DNA from: Myxococcota bacterium
GTDB taxonomy: Bacteria > Myxococcota > JACRCW01
Assembly (NCBI GenBank): GCA_040752415.1
Contig: JBFMGU010000143.1
Coordinates: 1 to 27,398, forward strand
Reading direction: 5' to 3'
Length of the DNA: 27,398 nt
A model generated the notes under the pieces. That model was given only the letters and a program-made list of their open reading frames with translations, was not told the origin of the DNA and ran no database searches. The position numbers were made by a program, and so were the translations under genes. Below are positions 1 to 9,475 of this stretch, piece by piece. Position 1 is the first letter of the stretch. Every line of letters starts with the position of its first letter.

Positions 1-174
1 GCGCTCCTCCGCCAGCCGACGCAGGGATTCCTTCTGCGCCTGCCGCGCGCCCGGCGGATTGTTCCCGCTGAGGATCTCCGTCAGGAGCGCCTTGCGCGGG
101 TTGTCGTCCGCCATCGCGGCGACGTGCGCACGAAGCCGGCTCATGGCCTGCTCTTGGTTGGTCGACGGCACCAT
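1..174 (-). CDS. Hypothetical protein, N-terminal part, runs off the left edge (MVPSTNQEQAMSRLRAHVAAMADDNPRKALLTEILSG...)
   Basis: Translated by hand, not in the ORF track. ATG at 174, GAGGTG RBS overlapping the stop of the upstream gene (183), frame open to the window edge. Confidence 0.7.
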   Translation of the reverse strand, partial: MVPSTNQEQAMSRLRAHVAAMADDNPRKALLTEILSGNNPPGARQAQKESLRRLAEER

Positions 175-182
175 GGCTCACC

Positions 183-761
183 TCACAGCTTCCCGAGGGC
201 CAAGAGCAGCGTGAGCATGTCCATGCGGCCTCCGCCGCCAGACAGCCCGCCCTCGCTCATCAGGAGCAGGAGCAGCGTGGTGGTATCCAGGCCGTCACCG
301 GTCGGCGCGCCGCTGCCGTCGCGGTCCTTCAGGAGCAGGATGAGCATCAGCGGGTCAATGCCCGTGCGCTCGTTGTCCTCCGTCGGCTGGTAGAACCCGC
401 CGCCCTGGGCAGCGACCGAGGCCGTCACGCTCTTGAGGCGCATCACGTCCTGTCGCACGGCCTGGAAGGCCTGACCCACGGCGCGCGCGAACTCGCGGAA
501 CTGCTCCGTGGTGATCACGCCTTCGGGGAACATGACGCGACCACCGCGCCCGTCGGGAAGCTGGATCATGAGGTCCCGCTTGCCTTCCGGGGTTTGGCCG
601 GTGACCGCTCCAATGACGCCGCCAATGGCGTCACCCACGGCGTGCTCAATGGCCTGCATGGCGTTCCCTGCGCCGGTCATGACCTGCCCCGGCGACGGAA
701 GGCCCGGAAGGGGCAGCGGCACCGGCACAGGCAGCGGGAGGGGAATTGGGGGGGCAAACAT
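183..761 (-). CDS. Hypothetical protein (192 aa): Pro-rich N-terminus and three Gly-flanked Leu-rich motifs at the C-terminus; possible virion/membrane protein
   Basis: AAGGTG RBS before ATG 761; tightly packed in an operon; motifs GIDPLMLILLLKD, GLDTTTLLLLLMSE, GRMDMLTLLLALGKL. Confidence 0.75.
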   Translation of the reverse strand: MFAPPIPLPLPVPVPLPLPGLPSPGQVMTGAGNAMQAIEHAVGDAIGGVIGAVTGQTPEGKRDLMIQLPDGRGGRVMFPEGVITTEQFREFARAVGQAFQAVRQDVMRLKSVTASVAAQGGGFYQPTEDNERTGIDPLMLILLLKDRDGSGAPTGDGLDTTTLLLLLMSEGGLSGGGGRMDMLTLLLALGKL

Positions 762-798
762 GTTTCACCTTCTTCTCTCTGGACCACGTGGGGTCCGG

Positions 799-2469
799 TT
801 ACGCCGGCCTCATGGCCGGCGGGTTCAGGCCGAGGGCACTCGCCAACTCGGCTGAAGACGCTTCACGTTGATTTCCGACGACGTTGCCGGCAGTGCTGGC
901 CATGCCGCCCACGGCGCCGACAATGGGGCCAGCCACCGTGGCAACGGGACCGACGATCTCCGCGGCGGCCGTCAGGAACGGTCCGACGTAGGGCACGGCG
1001 GAGAGGGCAGGTCCGACGGCGCTGGCCACCGGCCCAGCGATTCCGAGCGCGGCGGCCAAGCCGCCCGACGCGGCGCCAACGAGCTTGGACAGGCCGACGA
1101 TACCTTCCTTGCTGGTGACCACTTCAAAGGCGTGACCAGCAAGATCCCCGACGCCGGCGACGACCCGACGGCCAACCTTGTTGAGGTCGGACGCGGCCTC
1201 CCTGACGTCGGGGGGAAGCAACTGCGCCGGGAAGGCAAGGTCACCGCCAGCACCAAAGCTGCCCAGGTGCACGACAGGCTTGAGGTTCACGGGCACCGCA
1301 GTGCCGTTGACGACGAGCGTGCCGTCACCATTGAACACCACTTGGCCGATCTGGCCGTCCTTGACCCCCAGGGCCTTCGCAGCGTCGGCAGTGCGGGGCT
1401 GGATGATGGCCGAGGCGGCAGTGTTGGGTTGGACCGGCCGCGGACCGTTGGCGCCCTCAATGACCGGCCGCGGGATGAGCGCTTCCGGGTTCACGAAGAT
1501 GCGCATGTCACTGAAGGGGAAGGTGCGATCAATGACGTACTCGACGGCAAAGTGCAGATGTGGCCCGTTCTGCGCGGTCCCGCTGTGCCCGCTCTCCGCA
1601 AACTGCTGACCCTGCTCCACGACGGTGCCGGGCTGCACGAGCACGCGTTGCAAGTGCGCGAACGTGAGAATGAAGCCCGTGTCGTCTTGGGAGTTGTAGT
1701 CAATGTCCGGGAAGATCCCGTCGGGGCGCACCGCGGTGGCCTTCACCACCGTGCCGCCCTCGCGCTCCTCAAAGACCTTGCGCACCATCATGCGCACCGG
1801 CGCCACCACGGGTGTGCCATCACCAGCGCGAAGATCAATCCCTCGGTGGGTCTCGTCGCCGCGGATGCTCTCGCGTGCGTCGAAGGCGCTGGTCACCGCC
1901 GAGGGGATGGCGAGAGGGGATGCCCACGCTCCTTGAGGGGCGGGCACGCTGGCGGGCAGCGGCGCGCGGGTGGCGTTGGCGTTCACGGGCTGCGCGCTGA
2001 CAGGCATGGCGCCACGCGTCTTGAATTCGTAGGCGCGCGCCAATTCGTCAGCCGTGACCTTGAAGAACAGCAGCGCCTTGCCAAAGAGGCGCCACATCTC
2101 GCGGCCCACCTCCCGCTCCTGGGCACCGGCCCGCCACGCTGCGTCCTCGACGCCGTCACGTGCCCCCACCTCGAACGTGGAAAGATCCGGTTGGCCTGAC
2201 AGCTCCTCCCGCATCGCTTCAAAGAAGCCGCGCCACATCCACGCCGTCTGGCTCTCGTCGTATTTCACGACTTGGTGCGCGGCGATGAAAGCACGGAGCC
2301 CCCCGTGGGATCCTGATGTCACGTCGGAGCCATCGCGTGTGGGCACCACCGTTTCCCGTGGCGCGCGGGGCTTGCGCGGCGGCTTCCCCGCCGCTGCCTT
2401 CTGGAGCTTCCAAGCGAGTTTGAAGTCACCACCCGCCTGGTCAATGAACTTCTTCTCAAGACCGGCCAT
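799..2469 (-). CDS. M23 (LytM-type) metallopeptidase-domain protein with unknown N-terminus and long Gly/Ala/Val-rich C-terminal tail (556 aa)
   Basis: HRGIDLRAGDGTPVVAP (HxxxD), FAHLQRVLVQPGTVVEQGQ and SGTAQNGPHLHFAV (HxH). Start moved from 2505 to ATG 2469 because of an AAAGGAGG RBS. Confidence 0.85.
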   Translation of the reverse strand: MAGLEKKFIDQAGGDFKLAWKLQKAAAGKPPRKPRAPRETVVPTRDGSDVTSGSHGGLRAFIAAHQVVKYDESQTAWMWRGFFEAMREELSGQPDLSTFEVGARDGVEDAAWRAGAQEREVGREMWRLFGKALLFFKVTADELARAYEFKTRGAMPVSAQPVNANATRAPLPASVPAPQGAWASPLAIPSAVTSAFDARESIRGDETHRGIDLRAGDGTPVVAPVRMMVRKVFEEREGGTVVKATAVRPDGIFPDIDYNSQDDTGFILTFAHLQRVLVQPGTVVEQGQQFAESGHSGTAQNGPHLHFAVEYVIDRTFPFSDMRIFVNPEALIPRPVIEGANGPRPVQPNTAASAIIQPRTADAAKALGVKDGQIGQVVFNGDGTLVVNGTAVPVNLKPVVHLGSFGAGGDLAFPAQLLPPDVREAASDLNKVGRRVVAGVGDLAGHAFEVVTSKEGIVGLSKLVGAASGGLAAALGIAGPVASAVGPALSAVPYVGPFLTAAAEIVGPVATVAGPIVGAVGGMASTAGNVVGNQREASSAELASALGLNPPAMRPA

Positions 2470-2529
2470 GACCGAGTCCTCCTTTCGGCGTTTTGATACG
2501 GACACGATAAGCAGCGCGCAGGAGTGACG

Positions 2530-2601
2530 ACGTACTACGAGCCTACGCGTAGTACGTGACCCCCGTTTCTCGTCGAGTGCCGCTGCGTAATACGCGCAGC
2601 G
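2530..2601. promoter_or_regulatory. Putative operator cluster: CGTAnTACG palindromes at 2531-2539, 2548-2556 and 2586-2594
   Basis: Read directly. The first two form a 10-bp inverted repeat (ACGTACTACG-N8-CGTAGTACGT). They lie between the divergent M23 and RHH genes. Confidence 0.55.
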
Positions 2602-2801
2602 ATCGCAGAAAACGGATCACGGAATCGCCGGTGCGCGCCATGCAAACCCGGCCGTTGTGGTGGGATATCGGATCACGTTTCTCCGCGTCCGGACGCGAAC
2701 TTTTGGCCTTCCAGGGTGTCCACCGCTATGGCCCGCGTGGCGGGCTTATTGCACGCTGGAACGAGGCGCCCGGAGTGGCCGGCGCTGGAGGAAGTACCGG
2801 G

Positions 2802-3023
2802 ATGGTGTCGAAGAAGGTCAGCAGCATCCGATGGGACGAGGAGATGCGCCAGCAGCTTGAGGAACGCGCGTGGCGCGAGCGGACCAGCGTCTCGGAACTC
2901 ATCCGATCCCTGGTCCGGCGCGGCCTTGCCCAGGACAGGCTTGCAGAGCGCCAGCAACCCGCGCCCGACCCGGACGAGGGGGAGGTGCGTACTACGGGCC
3001 CTGCGAAGACGCGTGCGCAGTGA
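2802..3023 (+). CDS. Ribbon-helix-helix (CopG/Arc-like) DNA-binding protein (73 aa)
   Basis: MVSKKVSSIRWDEEMRQQLEERAWRERTSVSELIRSLVRRGL fits the beta-strand, helix A, SxSELIR helix B pattern; GGAGG upstream of ATG 2802. Confidence 0.8.
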   Translation: MVSKKVSSIRWDEEMRQQLEERAWRERTSVSELIRSLVRRGLAQDRLAERQQPAPDPDEGEVRTTGPAKTRAQ

Positions 3024-3052
3024 TCTTCCGCCGCGTATCAACACCCCAGCAA

Positions 3053-3369
3053 TCAGCATCGTTCCCCACACAAGCAACAGGAGGTGGCCCTATGAACCCC
3101 AGTGACACCCGTGGTCTCCGCGGACGGCGACGGGGCCGGCGCGCCGTCCTCTGGCGGTGCTTGGCTGAACAGCTCGGCGAGCGCGACACCGTAGGCGGTC
3201 GACAGCGCCACGAGGCTCAACAGCGTCACGTTGGTGCGGCCTGTCTCAAGGCGGCTGAGTTGCTTGGGGTTGCGCGCTCCGCCGCCGCCTCCTGGGAAAG
3301 GCCGCGCTCGATTCGCAGCCCCCTGAGCCGCGCTCCCAGGGCGCGCCGCTCCCGCGCGAAGCTCGCCAT
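3053..3369 (-). pseudogene. XRE-family HTH regulator, frameshifted
   Basis: MASFARERRALGARLRGLRIERGLSQEAAAERA in one frame continues as PKQLSRLETGRTNVTLLSLVALSTAYGVALAELF in another. Break near 3270, where the usual G-L/I-H turn residues are missing. Confidence 0.8.
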
Positions 3370-3546
3370 GATGATGGGCTGCCGCTTGGCTTCCGGCCGT
3401 CCATGCGCATGTTGTGACCGTGGGGCAGGCACGCGGGCGCCCGGTTACGCGCCACGCCCTTGCGGGTCCAACAACTCAATTGTTACCATTGGCACCCTGT
3501 TGACGGAGCGCCGTTGCCCATTGCAGCCGCGGGAGACCCTCCCCCA

Positions 3547-3942
3547 ATGACAACTCCCAGATTGCGCATCCTCATCGTGGACGATGACGCGTTGGTGCGG
3601 GGCGCGCTCGTGCGACAGCTCCGCGCTGCTGGGTTTGACGTCGTGGGCTGTGCGGCGGATGCCGGCACGGCGGTTGAGCAGGCAGAGAAGTTGCGGCCCG
3701 ACGTTGTCACCATGGACGTGGATCTGGGCCGTGGTGCGTCCGGCTTGGAGGCAACCCGCGTGATCGCGGCCCGGCTTCGGACTTGTGTCGTCGTCGTCAC
3801 CAGTCAGGACGTTAGGGAAGCAGCATTGGAGGCGGGTGCCTGTGGGTTTGTCTCCAAGTTCGACGCACTGGAGCGCCTCGTCCCTGGGATCGTGACAGCG
3901 CACCGCGGCTGCCAAGACGCGCACGGGCACCGTGTGCCTTGA
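3547..3942 (+). CDS. Stand-alone response-regulator receiver domain protein
   Basis: RILIVDDD, RPDVVTMD (phospho-Asp), SGLEATR, VVVVTS and GACGFVSK motifs; no output domain. Confidence 0.85.
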   Translation: MTTPRLRILIVDDDALVRGALVRQLRAAGFDVVGCAADAGTAVEQAEKLRPDVVTMDVDLGRGASGLEATRVIAARLRTCVVVVTSQDVREAALEAGACGFVSKFDALERLVPGIVTAHRGCQDAHGHRVP

Positions 3943-4497
3943 GGAGTCCGCTGAAAATGAACCGCGCCATCTTGCAAAGAGCATGGACCGGCTTGGTCAG
4001 CGGCTTGATGCTCAACGCGGCCCGCGCCGTCCTGGCAAACTGAGCCGAACCGGCTCCCCCGTCACCCGCAGAGATGACCCTGTGGCAGGGAACGCCCAGG
4101 TGACTGACGTAGTGGACGCGCTTCTGACATTGCCCGCTTTGGACGTCGTCGCTCATGGTTCTTGGCGTGGACATCCACCGTGGCTTGGCGATGCTCAATT
4201 CGCTCGCGCTGCGGTTCCGCGAAGGGCTTCCAGCCCTTGAGCGCACCCTCGGGCACGGGTGGCTGCATGAACCCCGGGCTTGGCCTCCCTTCATCGTCGT
4301 GGCCCGCATCCTTCATGGCCCGCAGCGCCAAGATCAGAGCGCAAATCTGTGGCTTGACCAGGATGACAACCGGGCGTACCGTTTGAGCGCTTGACACCAA
4401 AGGGCGACCTTGCCGGCGACGGCTTGGGAGCAAATCCGCGGGCACTCTTGAAGGCTTCGCGGTGCCAAGCTGGCGTCGACGCCAGCGAGGGGGTCAG

Positions 4498-7046
4498 ATG
4501 CGAACTAGCGCTGTCGTCTTCGTGGCCGTTGTTATTGCCGTGCTTCCGTCGTGCCGGTCGAGGCAGGACGACCGAATCAGGTGTGCCTGCTTCAAGAGCA
4601 TCCAGGGCGGAACCGGAGTCGACACCATCAAGCCAACCGTTTGCTCAGATGCAGACCGCTCGGCGATGTGCCCAAAGAAGACTGCGAGCTCGCATGTGAC
4701 CGGAAAGAAGGCGGCCCGTACGAATTGGCGGATCCGCCAAGTCGGTTCAGTTGCGAGACGGACGCGGATTGCGCTGCGCCTGGGCGAGGACCGAAGTGTG
4801 CAACGCACCCGAGGACAGGACGACGAGAATGCTTCGAATCTTGTGCCGCACCGTTGACGGTCCAAGACTGCCCTGAGGTCGCCACCGGATTGATCGTCGA
4901 GTGCATCGACGATGCTTGCATAGATTTCCAGTGGGAGCGCGTGTCGGCGTGCAATCCGTTCGAGGCGGCGTTTGCCAACATTCAGGGAGATCCGGGCCGG
5001 GCGACGTCCGAATCCGTCGCCCCGTCCAGCGTCGTCGCGCATGATCTTGTCTTCGGCACTATTCGTGTTCCCGAGGATGGCACCGCGTTCCCATCACTCA
5101 GCGCCAGCACAACGCTGGCCGGCGCTCAACTGACCATCAACGCGCTCGACGGGACGGTGCCACCACAAACGATTCCGATCGCCGGCACGCCGGGATCGTG
5201 CGGTCCGGTCACGTCCACCTGTGCCCCTCCCGCATTGCCTGGTTCGTGTTCCTCAGACAGCGACTGCGTCGCTGCCGGGTCCTGCACGTCGGGTGCAATT
5301 GGGTCCGCGTGCAGTTCTGACGGCCAATGCAATGTCGTCGGAGAGTGCGACGACACGGGCTTCTGCAAGAGCGGCTCAGCAGGGTTGCCGTGCTCGAACG
5401 ATGTCAATTGCGACATCAGTGGCCAGTGCGTCTTCCTGTCGTCGTGCGTTCCACCGGCTGCGCCCGGAGCCTGCTCCAGCGACAACGACTGCGTGGTTGA
5501 AGCGTCATGCATTAGCGCCCGCGCTTGCACAAGTGCCCCCTTCCAGCCCTGCAACGAAGACGATCAGTGCGCCCCCTCGCTCGACTTGGATGGCACCACG
5601 ACGATGTCCGAGCCCTATTTCGTGCTCCTTTCGCCTGTGACGGTGCCGATAGCGGCGGACGGTTCGTTCGAGGTGCCGGCACAGGCCGCTGTGTTCGCAG
5701 CGGCGGGCTCGCTCAACTCGGCGCTCGGCGGCGCCGTGGAAGTCTCCTTCCTCGCGACCAACAGCAGTCCAATCGCTGGTGTGTACGACGAGGTCGGCGA
5801 CAACTTCACGCTGGCCGGCACACTTCAGCATCTGCCGGAGTCGCCCCTCTTGCCGGCAGCCGCTGGCGCGGACTTCAATGTGCGAATGCGGTTCGTCGGC
5901 AGGCCGCCTGTCGCGGAGGCAGGGGCTGATCGCAACGCGGTGTGCGGTGAACAGATCCAACTTCATGGAACGGCGACTGACCCCGACAACGACATAGTTT
6001 TTCAACAGTGGCTTATTGACCCGAACACTCCGACGACACAGACGCTGCCGGGTGCCGACGTCACGGTTTCGCTCGGTGTCGGCGCGCATGCCGCGACCTT
6101 CCAGGTGAGGGACTCGCGCGCCGTCTTCTCCGAGGACAGCATGGTCATTACGGTGACCAATGCTCCCCCGACGGCGGCGATCTCTGCCAATCCGACTCAG
6201 GAATGCACAAGCTCGGCCGGTGCCGACGTCAGTGTGTCGGCGGCTGGATCAAGTGATCCAGATGGATTGCCGCTGCATGCGTTCTACTGGCGGCTCGGCG
6301 CGCCGACCTCCCCCATCGTCGCCGAGGGCGCGCAGGCAACGCTTCCCCTTCCGATGGGGAGGACCACAGTCGTCTTGGAGGTCGTCGACGCTTGTGGCTC
6401 AACCGCGTTCACTACAACGGCGATCGACGTCGTCGACACCACACCGCCTGAACTGACGGAGTTCGCCTATCTTGGTCCAGCGTGCCTTTGGCCGCCAAAT
6501 CATCACTACTTCGTCGTCGACGTCAACGCTCACTTCTCTGCTCTGATTTCGGATCGCTGCTCAAACGCGACACTCACAGTGCTGTCGGCGAGCAGCAATC
6601 AGCCGGACGACGCGACCGGAGATGGAGACACCACCAACGATGTGGTCGTTCACCCGGATCACGTCTGCGTCCGGTCCGAGCGGCGCGGCAACTCCGCTGA
6701 TGCCCGGATCTACACGATCCACGTCGCAGCAATCGACGCGTCCGGCAACACATCCGACCCCTCAGTGCAGCTTCGCGTCGGTCATGACCAAGCGGGCCTG
6801 GATCGGTGTCTCGAAAATGTGCAGACCGTGGACGAGGGCGCGAGCGTTTGCCAGCCTGCTCCGCCGCCGAACGCTAGCACTCCGCCAGCGGGTTCTTCTG
6901 GCGAAGACGCGGACGACGGTAGCTCCCGCAGCATTGGGTCTGACGACGACGCCGGAGTGAATTGCTCGCACGCCGGCCACCCGTCGTTCTTCCTGGTCTG
7001 GTTGGGATTCGTCCAAGCATGGGCGCGGCGTCGGCGACGGGCGTAA
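4498..7046 (+). pseudogene. Large Cys-rich surface protein (lipoprotein signal, Cys repeats, PKD/Ig-like domains, WPPNH-motif domain, MYXO-CTERM-like tail), frameshifted near 4656
   Basis: Signal MRTSAVVFVAVVIAVLPSC starts at ATG 4498 after a GAGGGGG RBS, in a different frame from ORF 4551..7046. Adding one C at 4656-4657 joins them (CSDADPLGDVPKEDC). Also PPVAEAGADR, NAPPTAAI, LWPPNHHY and C-terminal GVNCSHAGHPSFFLVWLGFVQAWARRRRRA. Confidence 0.7.
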
Positions 7047-7064
7047 ATGGGAGGTCTTGTGCAA

Positions 7065-7923
7065 ATGCGTTCCGCCCTCGTTTTGTGCGCCGGGTTATTG
7101 GCCTGCGGCGCTGACAGCCGTTTCAAGCAACTCGCGGCCGGCAACAACTTGACCTGCGGCATTCTCGACGACGACTCGCTCGTCTGTTGGGGCGTCAACA
7201 ACGTCGGACAATCTGAACCGCCGACCGGCTCCTTCAAACGTGTCAGCGTGGGGTTGGCTCACGCTTGCGCGATCCGACAGGACGACTCACTTGCCTGCTG
7301 GGGTGACAACGGATCGGGTCGGGCGAGCCCACCCTCTGGCACATTCAAGGACGTGTCCGCGTCGCAGGCCTTCACCTGCGCTGTGTCGTTGACGGGGGAG
7401 ATTTCGTGCTTCGGTTCCGACGCGCCCCGCGCCCATTCCACAGGGCACCTTTGAGCGCGTCGCGGCCGGAGACATTCATGCTTGCGCACTGCGAAGCGAC
7501 ATGACTGTGGCCTGTTGGGGAGAGAATACGGACCGCATCGAGGCGCCAACAGGCGCGTTTTCCGAGGTAGCGGCTGGTTCTTCGCAGATTTGCGCGATTG
7601 CGCAAGATGGGGGGGTGTCGTGTTGGGGCCGCAATACCCAGGCTCCCAGTGGTGGTTTCCGAGCGATCAGCACCGTCATGGAGCACGCCTGCGGTGTCCG
7701 TACCGATGGAAACTTGGTGTGCTGGGGGTTGAATGACTGGGGGCAGGCAAGCCCGCCGACGGGCCGTTTCAAAGACGTGGCGGCCGGTTGGAGACACACG
7801 TGTGCGATCCGTGACGACGACACCGTGGCGTGCTGGGGCTCTCCTTATGGGGGCGCTACGACTTCGCGCTACGTCAAGGAAACCATCCTTCCGATACCGA
7901 CGTGTATCGGTCCAGCGTGCTGA
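7065..7923 (+). pseudogene. RCC1/BLIP-II-like repeat lipoprotein, frameshifted at the C-run 7425-7428
   Basis: Lipobox GLLAC after a GGGAGG RBS. Repeats of type F..V.AG..H.CAI..D..V.CWG.N occur in both ORFs 7047..7454 and 7501..7923. Removing one C gives DAPAPIPQGTFERVAAGDIHACALRSDMTVACWG. Confidence 0.8.
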
Positions 7924-7928
7924 CCCCA

Positions 7929-9139
7929 ATGACGCCCATTCGTGCGGCGGCTGTGTCTGGGGTTCTCGTCGTGGGTTTGGCGAATTGCACCAGCACCCCT
8001 GCCGGCGGTCCGCCAGATTCCGGGTCTCCGACGAGCGGCACGGCAGATCGTGACCGGTTTGTGACCGCCTATGAAGCGTTTCTGATCTGCGAGCGGGCCA
8101 ATGAAGATCAGTCCTTCCTCGGTCGTGTAGAGCCCCAGGCGCGCTCGTCATCCGCCCACGACGACGCGGAGGCATTCGCCGACCTCGTCTTTAACGCCCC
8201 CTTCCGTGAGCGTGTCCGCGGACGCCTTGGCCCAGTGCCTCGCGGCGTTGGAGCACGCCTCCATTCCGTGCCAAGGCGACCCGGATGACTTCAGTGCTAT
8301 CTGCGGCGCCGCTTTCGTCGGTCAACTCTCACCTGGCTCGCCCTGCGCTGCTGCGCTCCAGTGTGCTGGGGGCTTTTGTGCGGCCCGGGACGGTGGCTGC
8401 GGAGTCTGCACGCGCTACGCCGCGACTGGCGAGGCCTGCCTGGAAGCTCAGTGTGACAAGGGCAGCGGGCTCTATTGCGACCGCACGACGTACACCTGTC
8501 GCCAGATAGCCGAGCAAGGACAGACGTGCGTCGACGGGGCGGTGACTCTTCGGTGCGATGATTCGAGCTGGTGCGACTCGGTTTCGGGTCTGTGCCAGCC
8601 ACGACGAGGAGAAAGCGAGGCCTGCGCGGCGGCGGCGGAATGCGCCGAAGGGCTGCGATGTGCCTCCGGTACGTGCGCACGGAGGAAAGCGGCGGGCGAC
8701 ACATGCAACGTCGCGGCGGTGGACGAGTGCTCCGTGACGGAGAGCGGCATGGTGTGCGAGTACAGTGCTGACGGTGGCCATTGTTCTCTTGCAGAGGTTG
8801 TCGACGAGGGCGAGCCGTGCAATGCGGTCGGATCATTCGACTACACCGCGACACTCTGGTGCGAACACGGATTGACCACGCACTACTGCCGCTTGGCTGA
8901 CGGCGGCGGTCGCGAGGGCGTGTGCTCGCGTCGCCCAGGTCCAGGAGAGGCATGCTCCCGGATCTCTGCGCCGTGCGACGGACTGCCGTGAGGGGGAGGC
9001 GGGGTTCGTTTGCAGCACGTGGCCCGGACGCGGTGAGCCGTGCCAGTCGCGTTGTGCCGACGGCCTCCGTTGCGCGGCAAGCCAGGATGGTGGCCGCACC
9101 TGTCGGCCTCAGGCACCGCCGATCATCTGCGAGATGTGA
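7929..9139 (+). pseudogene. Cys-rich repeat lipoprotein (GExC...C..GL.C repeats) with two frameshifts (about 8197-8201 and about 8980)
   Basis: Lipobox VGLANC. Removing one C of CCCCC joins it to ORF 8206..8991. The same repeat resumes in another frame at 8981 (DCREGEAGFVCSTWPGRGEPCQSRCADGLRC...ICEM, stop 9139). Confidence 0.7.
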
Positions 9140-9147
9140 CCCTGTGT

Positions 9148-9426
9148 TCAACCGGGCCGCGTAAGCAGAGCGGAGAGGGCCTGCCGCACGTCGTGCAGTA
9201 TCTTCAGCGCAGCGCCCGCGTCTCCGGAAACGAGCGCCAGCATGGCGCCCTGAACCATGTTGCTGACATTGCTGACACGCTGATCGCGAACATCCGCGTC
9301 CGTTTGTGAGGGTTCGCGGTCGGCGCCCACTTTCTCCGCGTCATTCTGCGGAGTTTTCGCTATCGGTGCTTGTGGTTCCATGAGCGTCCCGTCGCTTCCG
9401 GCGCCTTCGATTCCCGCTGGGATCAC
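9148..9426 (-). other. Putative detached C-terminal segment of an integrase gene split by integration
   Basis: Frame reads VIPAGIE across the att core and stays open for 85 more residues, ending in an amphipathic helix; its stop converges 8 bp from the cargo gene stop at 9139. No catalytic motif is present, so the integrase link is inference. Confidence 0.5.
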
Positions 9427-9428
9427 CA
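9406..9428 (+). other. Attachment-site core: 3' fragment of a tRNA (probably tRNA-Glu, Arg possible)
   Basis: TTCGATT (T-loop) CCCGC (T-stem 3' strand) TGGGATC (acceptor 3' strand) A CCA. Upstream bases do not supply the matching GCGGG T-stem strand or a 5' tRNA half. Confidence 0.85.
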
Positions 9429-9438
9429 AACGTTGTAC

Positions 9439-9475
9439 GCGGGCATCCGGGAAACCGGGTGCCCGCTTTTTTTTT
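9439..9475 (+). terminator. Rho-independent terminator, likely that of the target tRNA gene
   Basis: 12-bp stem GCGGGCATCCGG / CCGGGTGCCCGC (one G-U pair), GAAA loop, followed by 9 T; starts 10 bp after the CCA. Confidence 0.92.

Follow-up and report, generated by a model that had tools for sequence, protein, structure and literature searches.

A conserved M23-peptidase operon of a small Mx8-integrase-type integrative element in a Myxococcota genome

Contig JBFMGU010000143.1 of a Myxococcota bacterium (GenBank assembly GCA_040752415.1) begins with a block of minus-strand genes (positions 1-2469), the first of which encodes a protein with an M23 peptidase domain. To what kind of mobile element does this block belong, and what could its products do for that element? 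The window, i.e. the whole stretch of DNA that was analyzed, comprises 27,398 bp and is one whole contig (C50) of an 11-Mb assembly with 520 contigs. An earlier note, made from the letters alone, took the block for the start of the structural module of a small, possibly tailless or membrane-containing temperate virus, and this interpretation is partly supported. The analysis firmly shows that the block is the front of the conserved operon of a 12.8-kb unit, which is a complete small integrative element of the Mx8-integrase type. The operon may, but need not, have a role in a virion.

The element extends beyond the left end of the window, which no other contig of the assembly overlaps by 21 nt or more. 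The left neighbor was found by protein homology. The core proteins of a related locus, L005, which lies on a 44.9-kb metagenome contig, were searched against the genome of the window, and all were placed at the start of contig C33. The end of reverse-complemented C50 and the start of C33 have 18 nt in common, and the third gene of the block (gene 3) stays in frame across the join. The assembly break is thus located inside the element, within gene 3 (window position 1 / C33:1-18, the 18-nt overlap). Relatives are found at contig edges too (L005, G150:C671, P0017).

An intact tRNA-Glu(CTC) gene is located at C33:3399-3472, on the strand opposite to the integrase open reading frame (ORF), while no intact tRNA gene was found within the window. 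The 3' end of this tRNA gene, C33:3400-3419, is repeated exactly and in direct orientation at window 9406-9425 (20 nt). Window 9406-9425 is the displaced original 3' end of tRNA-Glu. Since these 20-nt repeats lie at both ends, the element consists of window 9425..1 plus C33:19..3419, i.e. 12,806 bp. The earlier note had placed an att site at 9.4 kb, had called the element small and had proposed a leftward extension to the intact tRNA; the extension yielded the tRNA, an integrase (C33:1941-3437) and the second att copy, in agreement with all of this. Outside the element, one flank carries further tRNA genes and prs, whereas tpx and a NUDIX gene are found in the other flank. In an empty-site check, tpx was not found in genome G001 with the query used. 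The features of the integration module are:

9406..9466, plus strand: attR, made up of the 20-nt core (9406-9425), the encoded CCA and the strong terminator of the tRNA gene itself (9439-9466) with its T-run
C33:1941-3437: integrase ORF, running into tRNA-Glu on the opposite strand
9148..9405, minus strand: C-terminal extension of the integrase, present in the excised form only (in-silico attP junction)

The integrase (Int) shares 41% identity with its Mx8 counterpart across residues 8-384 (E 9e-70) and matches phrog_1 (E 7.6e-38). Just upstream of int lies a gene for a Uoi-like excisionase (Xis; HTH_17 E 1e-09, phrog_66 E 8.6e-07). When the ends of the element were joined in silico, the int frame passed through the att core, which begins at codon 487, into window 9405..9148, giving a protein of 578 aa across attP versus 498 aa in the integrated form. 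For Mx8, a review of myxophages likewise places attP inside int, so that the gene acquires a different 3' end upon integration (PMC6070905). The element thus resembles Mx8 in its homologous Int, in an HTH_17/MerR-like excisionase just upstream of int (in Mx8, uoi overlaps the int start) and in a predicted attP inside the int frame, where integration alters the Int C-terminus. By integrase homology, the Uoi-like excisionase and the position of attP, the integration module is assigned to the Mx8 type. As the two att cores match without a mismatch and the int ORF is uninterrupted whether the element is integrated or excised, the recombination system looks intact. In contrast to the element, with its 12.8 kb and no recognized structural gene, Mx8 is a 49.5-kb tailed phage. 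It gave no tblastn match for the M23 protein or for p192 and p327, two further core proteins described below, and the target of the element, tRNA-Glu, is a further difference.

The core operon runs in one direction through the M23 hydrolase gene, p192, gene 3 (p172 family), p67, p327, the Uoi-like excisionase gene and the Mx8-type integrase gene. The part that lies in the window consists of:

ATG 2469 to stop 799, minus strand: M23 gene, 556 aa, with AAAGGAGGA 7 nt upstream
ATG 761 to stop 183, minus strand: p192, 192 aa, with GAAGGTG upstream, after a 37-nt gap from the M23 gene
ATG 174..1, continuing in C33:19-354, minus strand: gene 3, first 58 codons in the window, with GAGGTG upstream, 8 nt after the p192 stop

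In comparisons with the L005 homologs, the ratio of nonsynonymous to synonymous substitutions (dN/dS) was 0.17-0.28 for the M23 gene, p192 (0.23) and gene 3 (0.28), and therefore the three minus-strand genes are real. For the full set of six core genes that were compared with L005, the ratio was 0.15-0.28, which corresponds to purifying selection. The G+C content at third codon positions is 0.80 in the M23 gene and 0.86 in p192. Three packed, intact minus-strand genes with clear ribosome-binding sites, as described in the earlier note, are hence confirmed by sequence, ORF lists and dN/dS. The earlier proposal that a longer structural module begins with this block does not hold, because only the rest of gene 3, p67 and p327 follow before xis and int. 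A short hairpin (2472-2488) encloses the ribosome-binding site of the M23 gene; on the opposite strand it was flagged as terminator-like.

The M23 domain (Pfam Peptidase_M23, E 1e-15) is the sole known domain in the three-gene block, as the earlier note had observed. The protein has a basic N-terminus, a helical domain at ~72-154, the M23 metallo-endopeptidase domain at ~177-350 and a beta extension up to ~392. The C-terminal region (~456-527) is Gly/Ala/Pro-rich and contains two hydrophobic stretches (helices). No N-terminal signal peptide was seen by eye. In an alignment of 27 family members the zinc ligands H208-x3-D212, H272 and H306 never vary, and at least 90% of the sequences also have H304. 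The alignment shows a predicted active site that is intact, and the enzyme appears to be active. An AlphaFold2 (AF2) model computed from the 27-sequence alignment reached a mean predicted local distance difference test score (pLDDT) of 68, with the N-domain (72-154) and the M23 domain plus beta extension (~180-392) modeled confidently and the C-terminal helices with low confidence. Structural comparison with VIA-align gave a Z score of 16 to LytM, EnvC, DipM, lysostaphin and ShyA, with a root-mean-square deviation (rmsd) of ~2 Å over ~126-131 residues, within 177-350 only. Viral matches of the model include tape-measure, internal or ejection proteins and endolysins, and a pre-ejectosome protein of cyanophage A4 (9k2v_A) aligned at Z 10.5 over model residues 177-346. 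With such virion-associated M23 hydrolases (tape-measure proteins, 9k2v_A, the peptidase of tectivirus Forthebois) the protein shares an M23 domain within a long, mostly helical chain. However, the M23 domain alone aligns, and the cellular LytM, EnvC and ShyA score higher. The N-terminal domain and a C-terminal 'IPYVGP' region are specific to the M23 family of the element.

The p192 protein has a Pro-rich N-terminus, a Gly-rich amphipathic stretch, a conserved core and three short C-terminal repeats of Asp plus a Leu run. It matched nothing in Pfam, PHROG, NCBIfam or PADLOC, and PADLOC gave no match for any of the core proteins tested. Its family comprises 8 proteins, itself included, in a collection of 5.8 billion proteins, and a search of a language-model atlas returned nothing above 0.9. 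Gene 3 encodes a hydrophilic, helical protein of 169 aa when joined across the contigs. Its 172-aa homolog in L005 matches C50:1-162 with residues 6-59 and C33:4-348 with residues 55-171. Between gene 3 and p327 (327 aa) lies p67, a conserved 67-aa gene with a strong ribosome-binding site. Segments at the transmembrane (TM) level (Kyte-Doolittle, 19-residue mean 1.6) are absent from p192, gene 3 (p172), p67 and p327, and only the M23 C-terminus is TM-like. The block had been described as Gly/Pro/Leu-rich and hydrophobic. This fits the M23 C-terminus and the Pro-rich N-terminus and short Leu runs of p192, but not p192 as a membrane protein, since it stays below the TM level, nor the hydrophilic gene 3 product.

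For p327, the nearest language-model clusters were found at 0.95-0.96 (chance level ~1 in 100). These are unnamed and mainly from Uroviricota, and one carries Beta_helix on 11% of its members. Long proteins with the p327 N-terminal motif carry no Beta_helix Pfam family, and profile searches of p192 and p327 against the PDB gave nothing significant. We regard p327 as probably a phage-like beta-helix protein, but treat this as a lead rather than a result.

Upstream of the M23 gene a divergent control region separates the operon from a gene for a ribbon-helix-helix (RHH) regulator:

2470..2801, no strand assigned: divergent control region, with an inverted CGTAGTACG pair (2531-2539 and 2548-2556) and a third site (2586-2594)
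2802..3023, plus strand: RHH regulator gene, 73 aa, Arc/CopG-like, transcribed away from the M23 operon

A fourth CGTAGTACG site is located inside the RHH gene (2988-2996). In the window the motif has 14 strand-wise matches with at most one mismatch, versus 1.74 expected, and 8 of the 14 fall within 2531-2996, corresponding to the four sites, each on both strands. We infer that 2470..2801 is a putative operator of the RHH repressor. The RHH_1 match itself is weak (E 0.0023; 18.2 bits, under the cut-off of 20.5 bits), and PHROG CopG/Arc-like repressors match at E ~1e-3. In L005, two RHH-like ORFs in the other orientation are located upstream of the M23 gene, one of which contains, by eye, the same Glu-x2-Ala-Trp ... 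Ser/Thr-Val-Ser-Glu-Leu stretch. The CGTAGTACG motif is absent from L005.

In order to search the whole 12.8-kb element for hallmark genes of known mobile elements, 114 stop-to-stop frames of at least 70 aa from all six reading frames were compared with PHROGs (E <=1e-4). Pfam was run on 91 of these; 23 of the shortest, all below 80 aa, were left out. PHROG matches were confined to the M23 gene, a receiver domain, an RCC1 fragment, Xis and Int, and Pfam recovered the same genes plus a Cys-rich repeat. No Walker A motif was present in any of the six frames. A large terminase was recognized neither by PHROG or Pfam profiles nor by a Walker A motif, and no profile of either set matched a portal, HK97-fold capsid or tail protein. 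A jelly-roll capsid protein was not found in sequence searches with p327 and p192. Likewise, neither profile matches nor a Walker A motif pointed to an FtsK/HerA-type packaging ATPase (Tectiviridae, Corticoviridae), to a relaxase, coupling protein, VirB4-type ATPase or type IV secretion system, or to an Inoviridae Zot/pI ATPase or rolling-circle Rep. A tailed prophage, an integrative and conjugative element (ICE) and any virus that needs a P-loop ATPase for packaging or assembly are therefore excluded at the level of sequence profiles. The observation in the earlier note that no terminase, portal, tail or conjugation gene lies by the att site is upheld by these scans. The note had also kept a tailed prophage or an ICE as options, and neither is recognizable in the element. 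Its proposal of a tailless or membrane-containing virus receives partial support: no tailed-phage or conjugation hallmark was recognized, but neither were a capsid, a packaging ATPase or Rep, and only one protein has membrane-type segments.

The full core order recurs in one metagenome contig, L005, where the M23 gene (74% identical) is followed by genes for a p192 homolog, for proteins of 172 and 331 aa, for an HTH_17 excisionase and for a tyrosine integrase. The integrases of the two elements share 56% identity by search and 53% in alignment. The L005 int ends (L005:6763-6812) within a 49-nt stretch that exactly matches positions 27-76 of the initiator tRNA of the genome studied here (C59:10365-10440). 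As L005 lacks the 5' part of this tRNA, it would represent either an attP form or a portion of a tandem island array. The window does not contain the tRNA-fMet-like motif of L005. By these matches, the same core travels with integrases of different predicted tRNA specificity (tRNA-Glu here, tRNA-fMet-like in L005). Just past the L005 att site (L005:6975-7100) a Shine-Dalgarno-like box, AACAAGGAGGT, occurs twice in nearly identical form, both times ahead of an ATG and a mini-ORF of four codons. Further past the att site, on the opposite strand (L005:7457-13291), are genes for a protein kinase, a PcfJ-like protein, a fusion of ADP-ribosylglycohydrolase and dual-specificity phosphatase, and a dynamin-like fragment.

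A scan of 1.84 billion representative proteins returned 21 relatives of the M23 protein at E <=1e-30, and ~40 relatives, with 30-45% identity, cover the N-domain and the C-terminal region in addition to the M23 domain. A word-index search with the M23 family profile gave close relatives only. In 29 of 30 M23-family clusters the longest contig is at most 14.6 kb, the exception (32.3 kb) being a match with partial architecture. For 7 of the 30 the longest contig is 9,003-9,591 bp (P0021, P0022, P0024, P0027, P0028, P0038, P0039), with two of exactly 9,314 bp. These lengths hint at units of ~9-13 kb, a picture to which poor soil assemblies could look much alike. As to the search for syntenic homologs in Myxococcota that the earlier note had proposed, the full core order was found in the metagenome locus L005, and among 400 other Myxococcota genomes only one (G150) contains an M23 relative extending beyond the M23 domain, on a 1.9-kb contig. 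There, the M23 gene is followed by a 206-aa gene that is p192-like by eye. This tally includes one unpublished genome (G195), on which no claim rests. A match in a further genome (G124) was rejected as an ordinary chromosomal M23 gene. No relatives of p192 or p327 were found in genome representatives, in IMG/VR or in the 400 other Myxococcota genomes, apart from three weak motif-only matches in the last set. The M23 family was not found in IMG/VR, and PLSDB and a phage collection gave M23-domain matches only. A 2026 preprint on myxobacterial viruses (10.64898/2026.09.14.751636) makes no mention of tailless, non-tailed, inovir-, tectivir-, microvir- or M23.

The other half of the element, from the RHH gene to attR (3.1-9.4 kb), is lower in G+C and carries typical secreted myxobacterial proteins. 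Its features are:

3460..8991, plus strand: cargo, lower G+C (0.63-0.65), on the strand opposite to the core operon
3460-3942, plus strand: stand-alone receiver domain (Pfam/PHROG scans)
4551-7046, plus strand: Cys-rich PKD-like protein of 831 aa with a myxosortase-type C-terminus (NF038112, E 8e-10)
7047-7923, plus strand: frameshifted RCC1-repeat gene, in which frames 7047-7451 and 7393-7920 overlap out of register, both with RCC1_2 repeats
8206-8991, plus strand: Cys-rich protein, 261 aa

For the 831-aa protein, a lipoprotein-type signal peptide is located in another frame (ORF 4462-4857), which suggests a frameshift. Broken cargo genes had been described in the earlier note; breakage was confirmed only for the RCC1 gene, with its two overlapping out-of-frame frames. 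The 1 kb upstream of the L005 M23 gene does not align with the cargo half.

Taken together, we tentatively favor, at clearly less than even confidence, a satellite-like integrative element in which a predicted operon, coupled to induction, supplies envelope-breaching and adsorption-type proteins for a helper-dependent life. The RHH repressor, bound to the CGTAGTACG palindromes, would keep the operon silent. Upon derepression Xis and Int would be made together with the envelope proteins, so that excision would be coupled to the transfer stage. The M23 endopeptidase, held at a membrane by its C-terminal helices, would cut peptidoglycan, and p327, phage-like and probably a beta-helix, would act in adsorption or polysaccharide cleavage. 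The element would ride in particles of a helper phage, to which it would contribute penetration and host-range proteins. Action at the transfer stage is suggested because the operon runs straight into xis and int, apparently under one RHH-controlled region, and a helper-dependent, satellite-like life is favored because the element seems unable to form or fill capsids of its own. Like phage satellites (P4-like elements, phage-inducible chromosomal islands (PICI) and phage-inducible chromosomal minimalist islands (PICMI)), it is small, integrates at a tRNA gene, combines an integrase with an AlpA/HTH_17-type excisionase and lacks a full set of virion genes.

Several points weigh against this reading. 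Most known satellites carry a gene for a small terminase, for redirection of capsid size or for a primase, whereas no Rep, primase or replicase, small terminase or capsid-redirecting gene was recognized in the scans of the element. We know of no satellite with a lysin or tailspike-type gene, and no helper phage was identified for the element. A single transcript from the M23 gene through int is a prediction. The products of p192, gene 3 and p67 matched nothing in sequence searches and have no assignable function. The beta-helix call for p327 rests on weak leads, with a pLDDT of 30 for its AF2 model and a putative tail fiber at E 0.14 as its best PDB profile match. Outside the M23 domain, Foldseek alignments of the M23 model with tape-measure and internal virion proteins are poor (rmsd >20 Å). 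Finally, the cargo half is partly broken, and this copy may therefore be inactive.

Three other explanations were considered. In line with the idea of the earlier note, the element might be a small temperate virus that spreads autonomously and lacks an icosahedral capsid, i.e. a pleomorphic or membrane-bound, Plasmaviridae-like virus. Its excised circle would be enclosed in a membrane vesicle bearing the C-terminally anchored M23 protein, with p327 as spike. The Plasmaviridae (Acholeplasma phage L2) are temperate and enveloped, have ~12 kbp and no icosahedral capsid (PMC12662186). The 12.8 kb of the element come close to this size, and the absence of a recognized capsid or packaging ATPase, the membrane-type helices of the M23 protein, the small contigs of most relatives (29 of 30) and a core conserved under selection all fit. 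However, the host of the Plasmaviridae has no cell wall, and no homology was detected: when the phage collection was searched by tblastn, the M23 protein, p192 and p327 yielded M23-domain matches or none at all. Membrane viruses carry several TM proteins, whereas TM-like segments are present in one protein only. Moreover, no Rep or origin was recognized, p327 resembles proteins of tailed phages, no relative was found in IMG/VR, and the contig sizes may simply result from poor soil assemblies. We consider such a virus unlikely. Equally improbable, in our view, is the remnant of a larger podovirus-like prophage, in which the end of a late operon (ejection and lysin proteins, an Arc/Mnt-like RHH protein, a tailspike) would be followed by xis, int and att, with head and early genes replaced by decaying cargo. 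In P22 the order is ejection proteins, Arc/Mnt, tailspike and att-int, and the element follows a similar block logic, with envelope-crossing proteins, a small RHH regulator, a beta-helix-like protein and xis/int/att. This likeness lies in gene order; no sequence homology to P22 proteins was seen, although no search aimed at it was made. Head, portal and terminase genes were not recognized in the element, and its RHH gene is placed elsewhere. The Mx8-type Int and Xis, the phage-like p327, at least one broken cargo gene, the L005 copy on a 44.9-kb contig and the resemblance of the M23 model to ejection and tape-measure proteins, which is confined to the M23 domain, speak for a remnant. It is difficult to reconcile with two perfect att cores, an int ORF open in both the integrated and the excised form, and purifying selection on all six core genes. 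In addition, no phage genes adjoin the core in close relatives (L005, short contigs), the family is mostly found on contigs of at most 14.6 kb, and Mx8 has no homolog of the M23 protein, p192 or p327.

Still less probable appears a genomic island with a lytic weapon or a lysis cassette, in which the M23 enzyme and its partners would kill prey or competitors, or lyse the host, and Int and Xis would only move the island. Such a role would suit an M23 enzyme that appears to be active and has M23 bacteriocins such as lysostaphin as structural neighbors, as well as the remaining cargo, which consists of proteins typical of the myxobacterial secretome; many lytic enzymes are secreted by myxobacteria (PMC8538405). 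It fits less well with an M23 protein in which no N-terminal signal peptide was seen, with an operon that is co-directional and directly continuous with xis and int, with the pairing of the same core with two integrases of different predicted tRNA specificity, and with the lack of a PADLOC match.

Beyond the favored satellite-like reading, the M23 protein, with its helical N-domain, M23 domain and 'IPYVGP' hydrophobic tail, might be the hallmark of an undescribed lineage of small temperate mobile genomes of ~9-13 kb in soil bacteria, which would spread without known capsid or packaging machinery, either as capsid-less, membrane-wrapped viruses of walled Gram-negative hosts or as a new kind of satellite with its own penetration and host-range proteins. 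We regard this broader proposal as possible, though doubtful. The element would be ordinary if it were no more than the decaying end of a prophage or an island with lytic cargo. If, however, the core operon mediates transfer, a mobile element of Gram-negative bacteria would move with no recognized capsid, packaging motor or conjugation system and with no recognized replication protein. Its hallmark would then be a cell-wall hydrolase that is conserved and membrane-anchored, and the gene for this enzyme could serve as a marker in metagenomes. The known modes by which small elements spread would be extended, by pleomorphic viruses of walled bacteria or by satellites that supply entry proteins.

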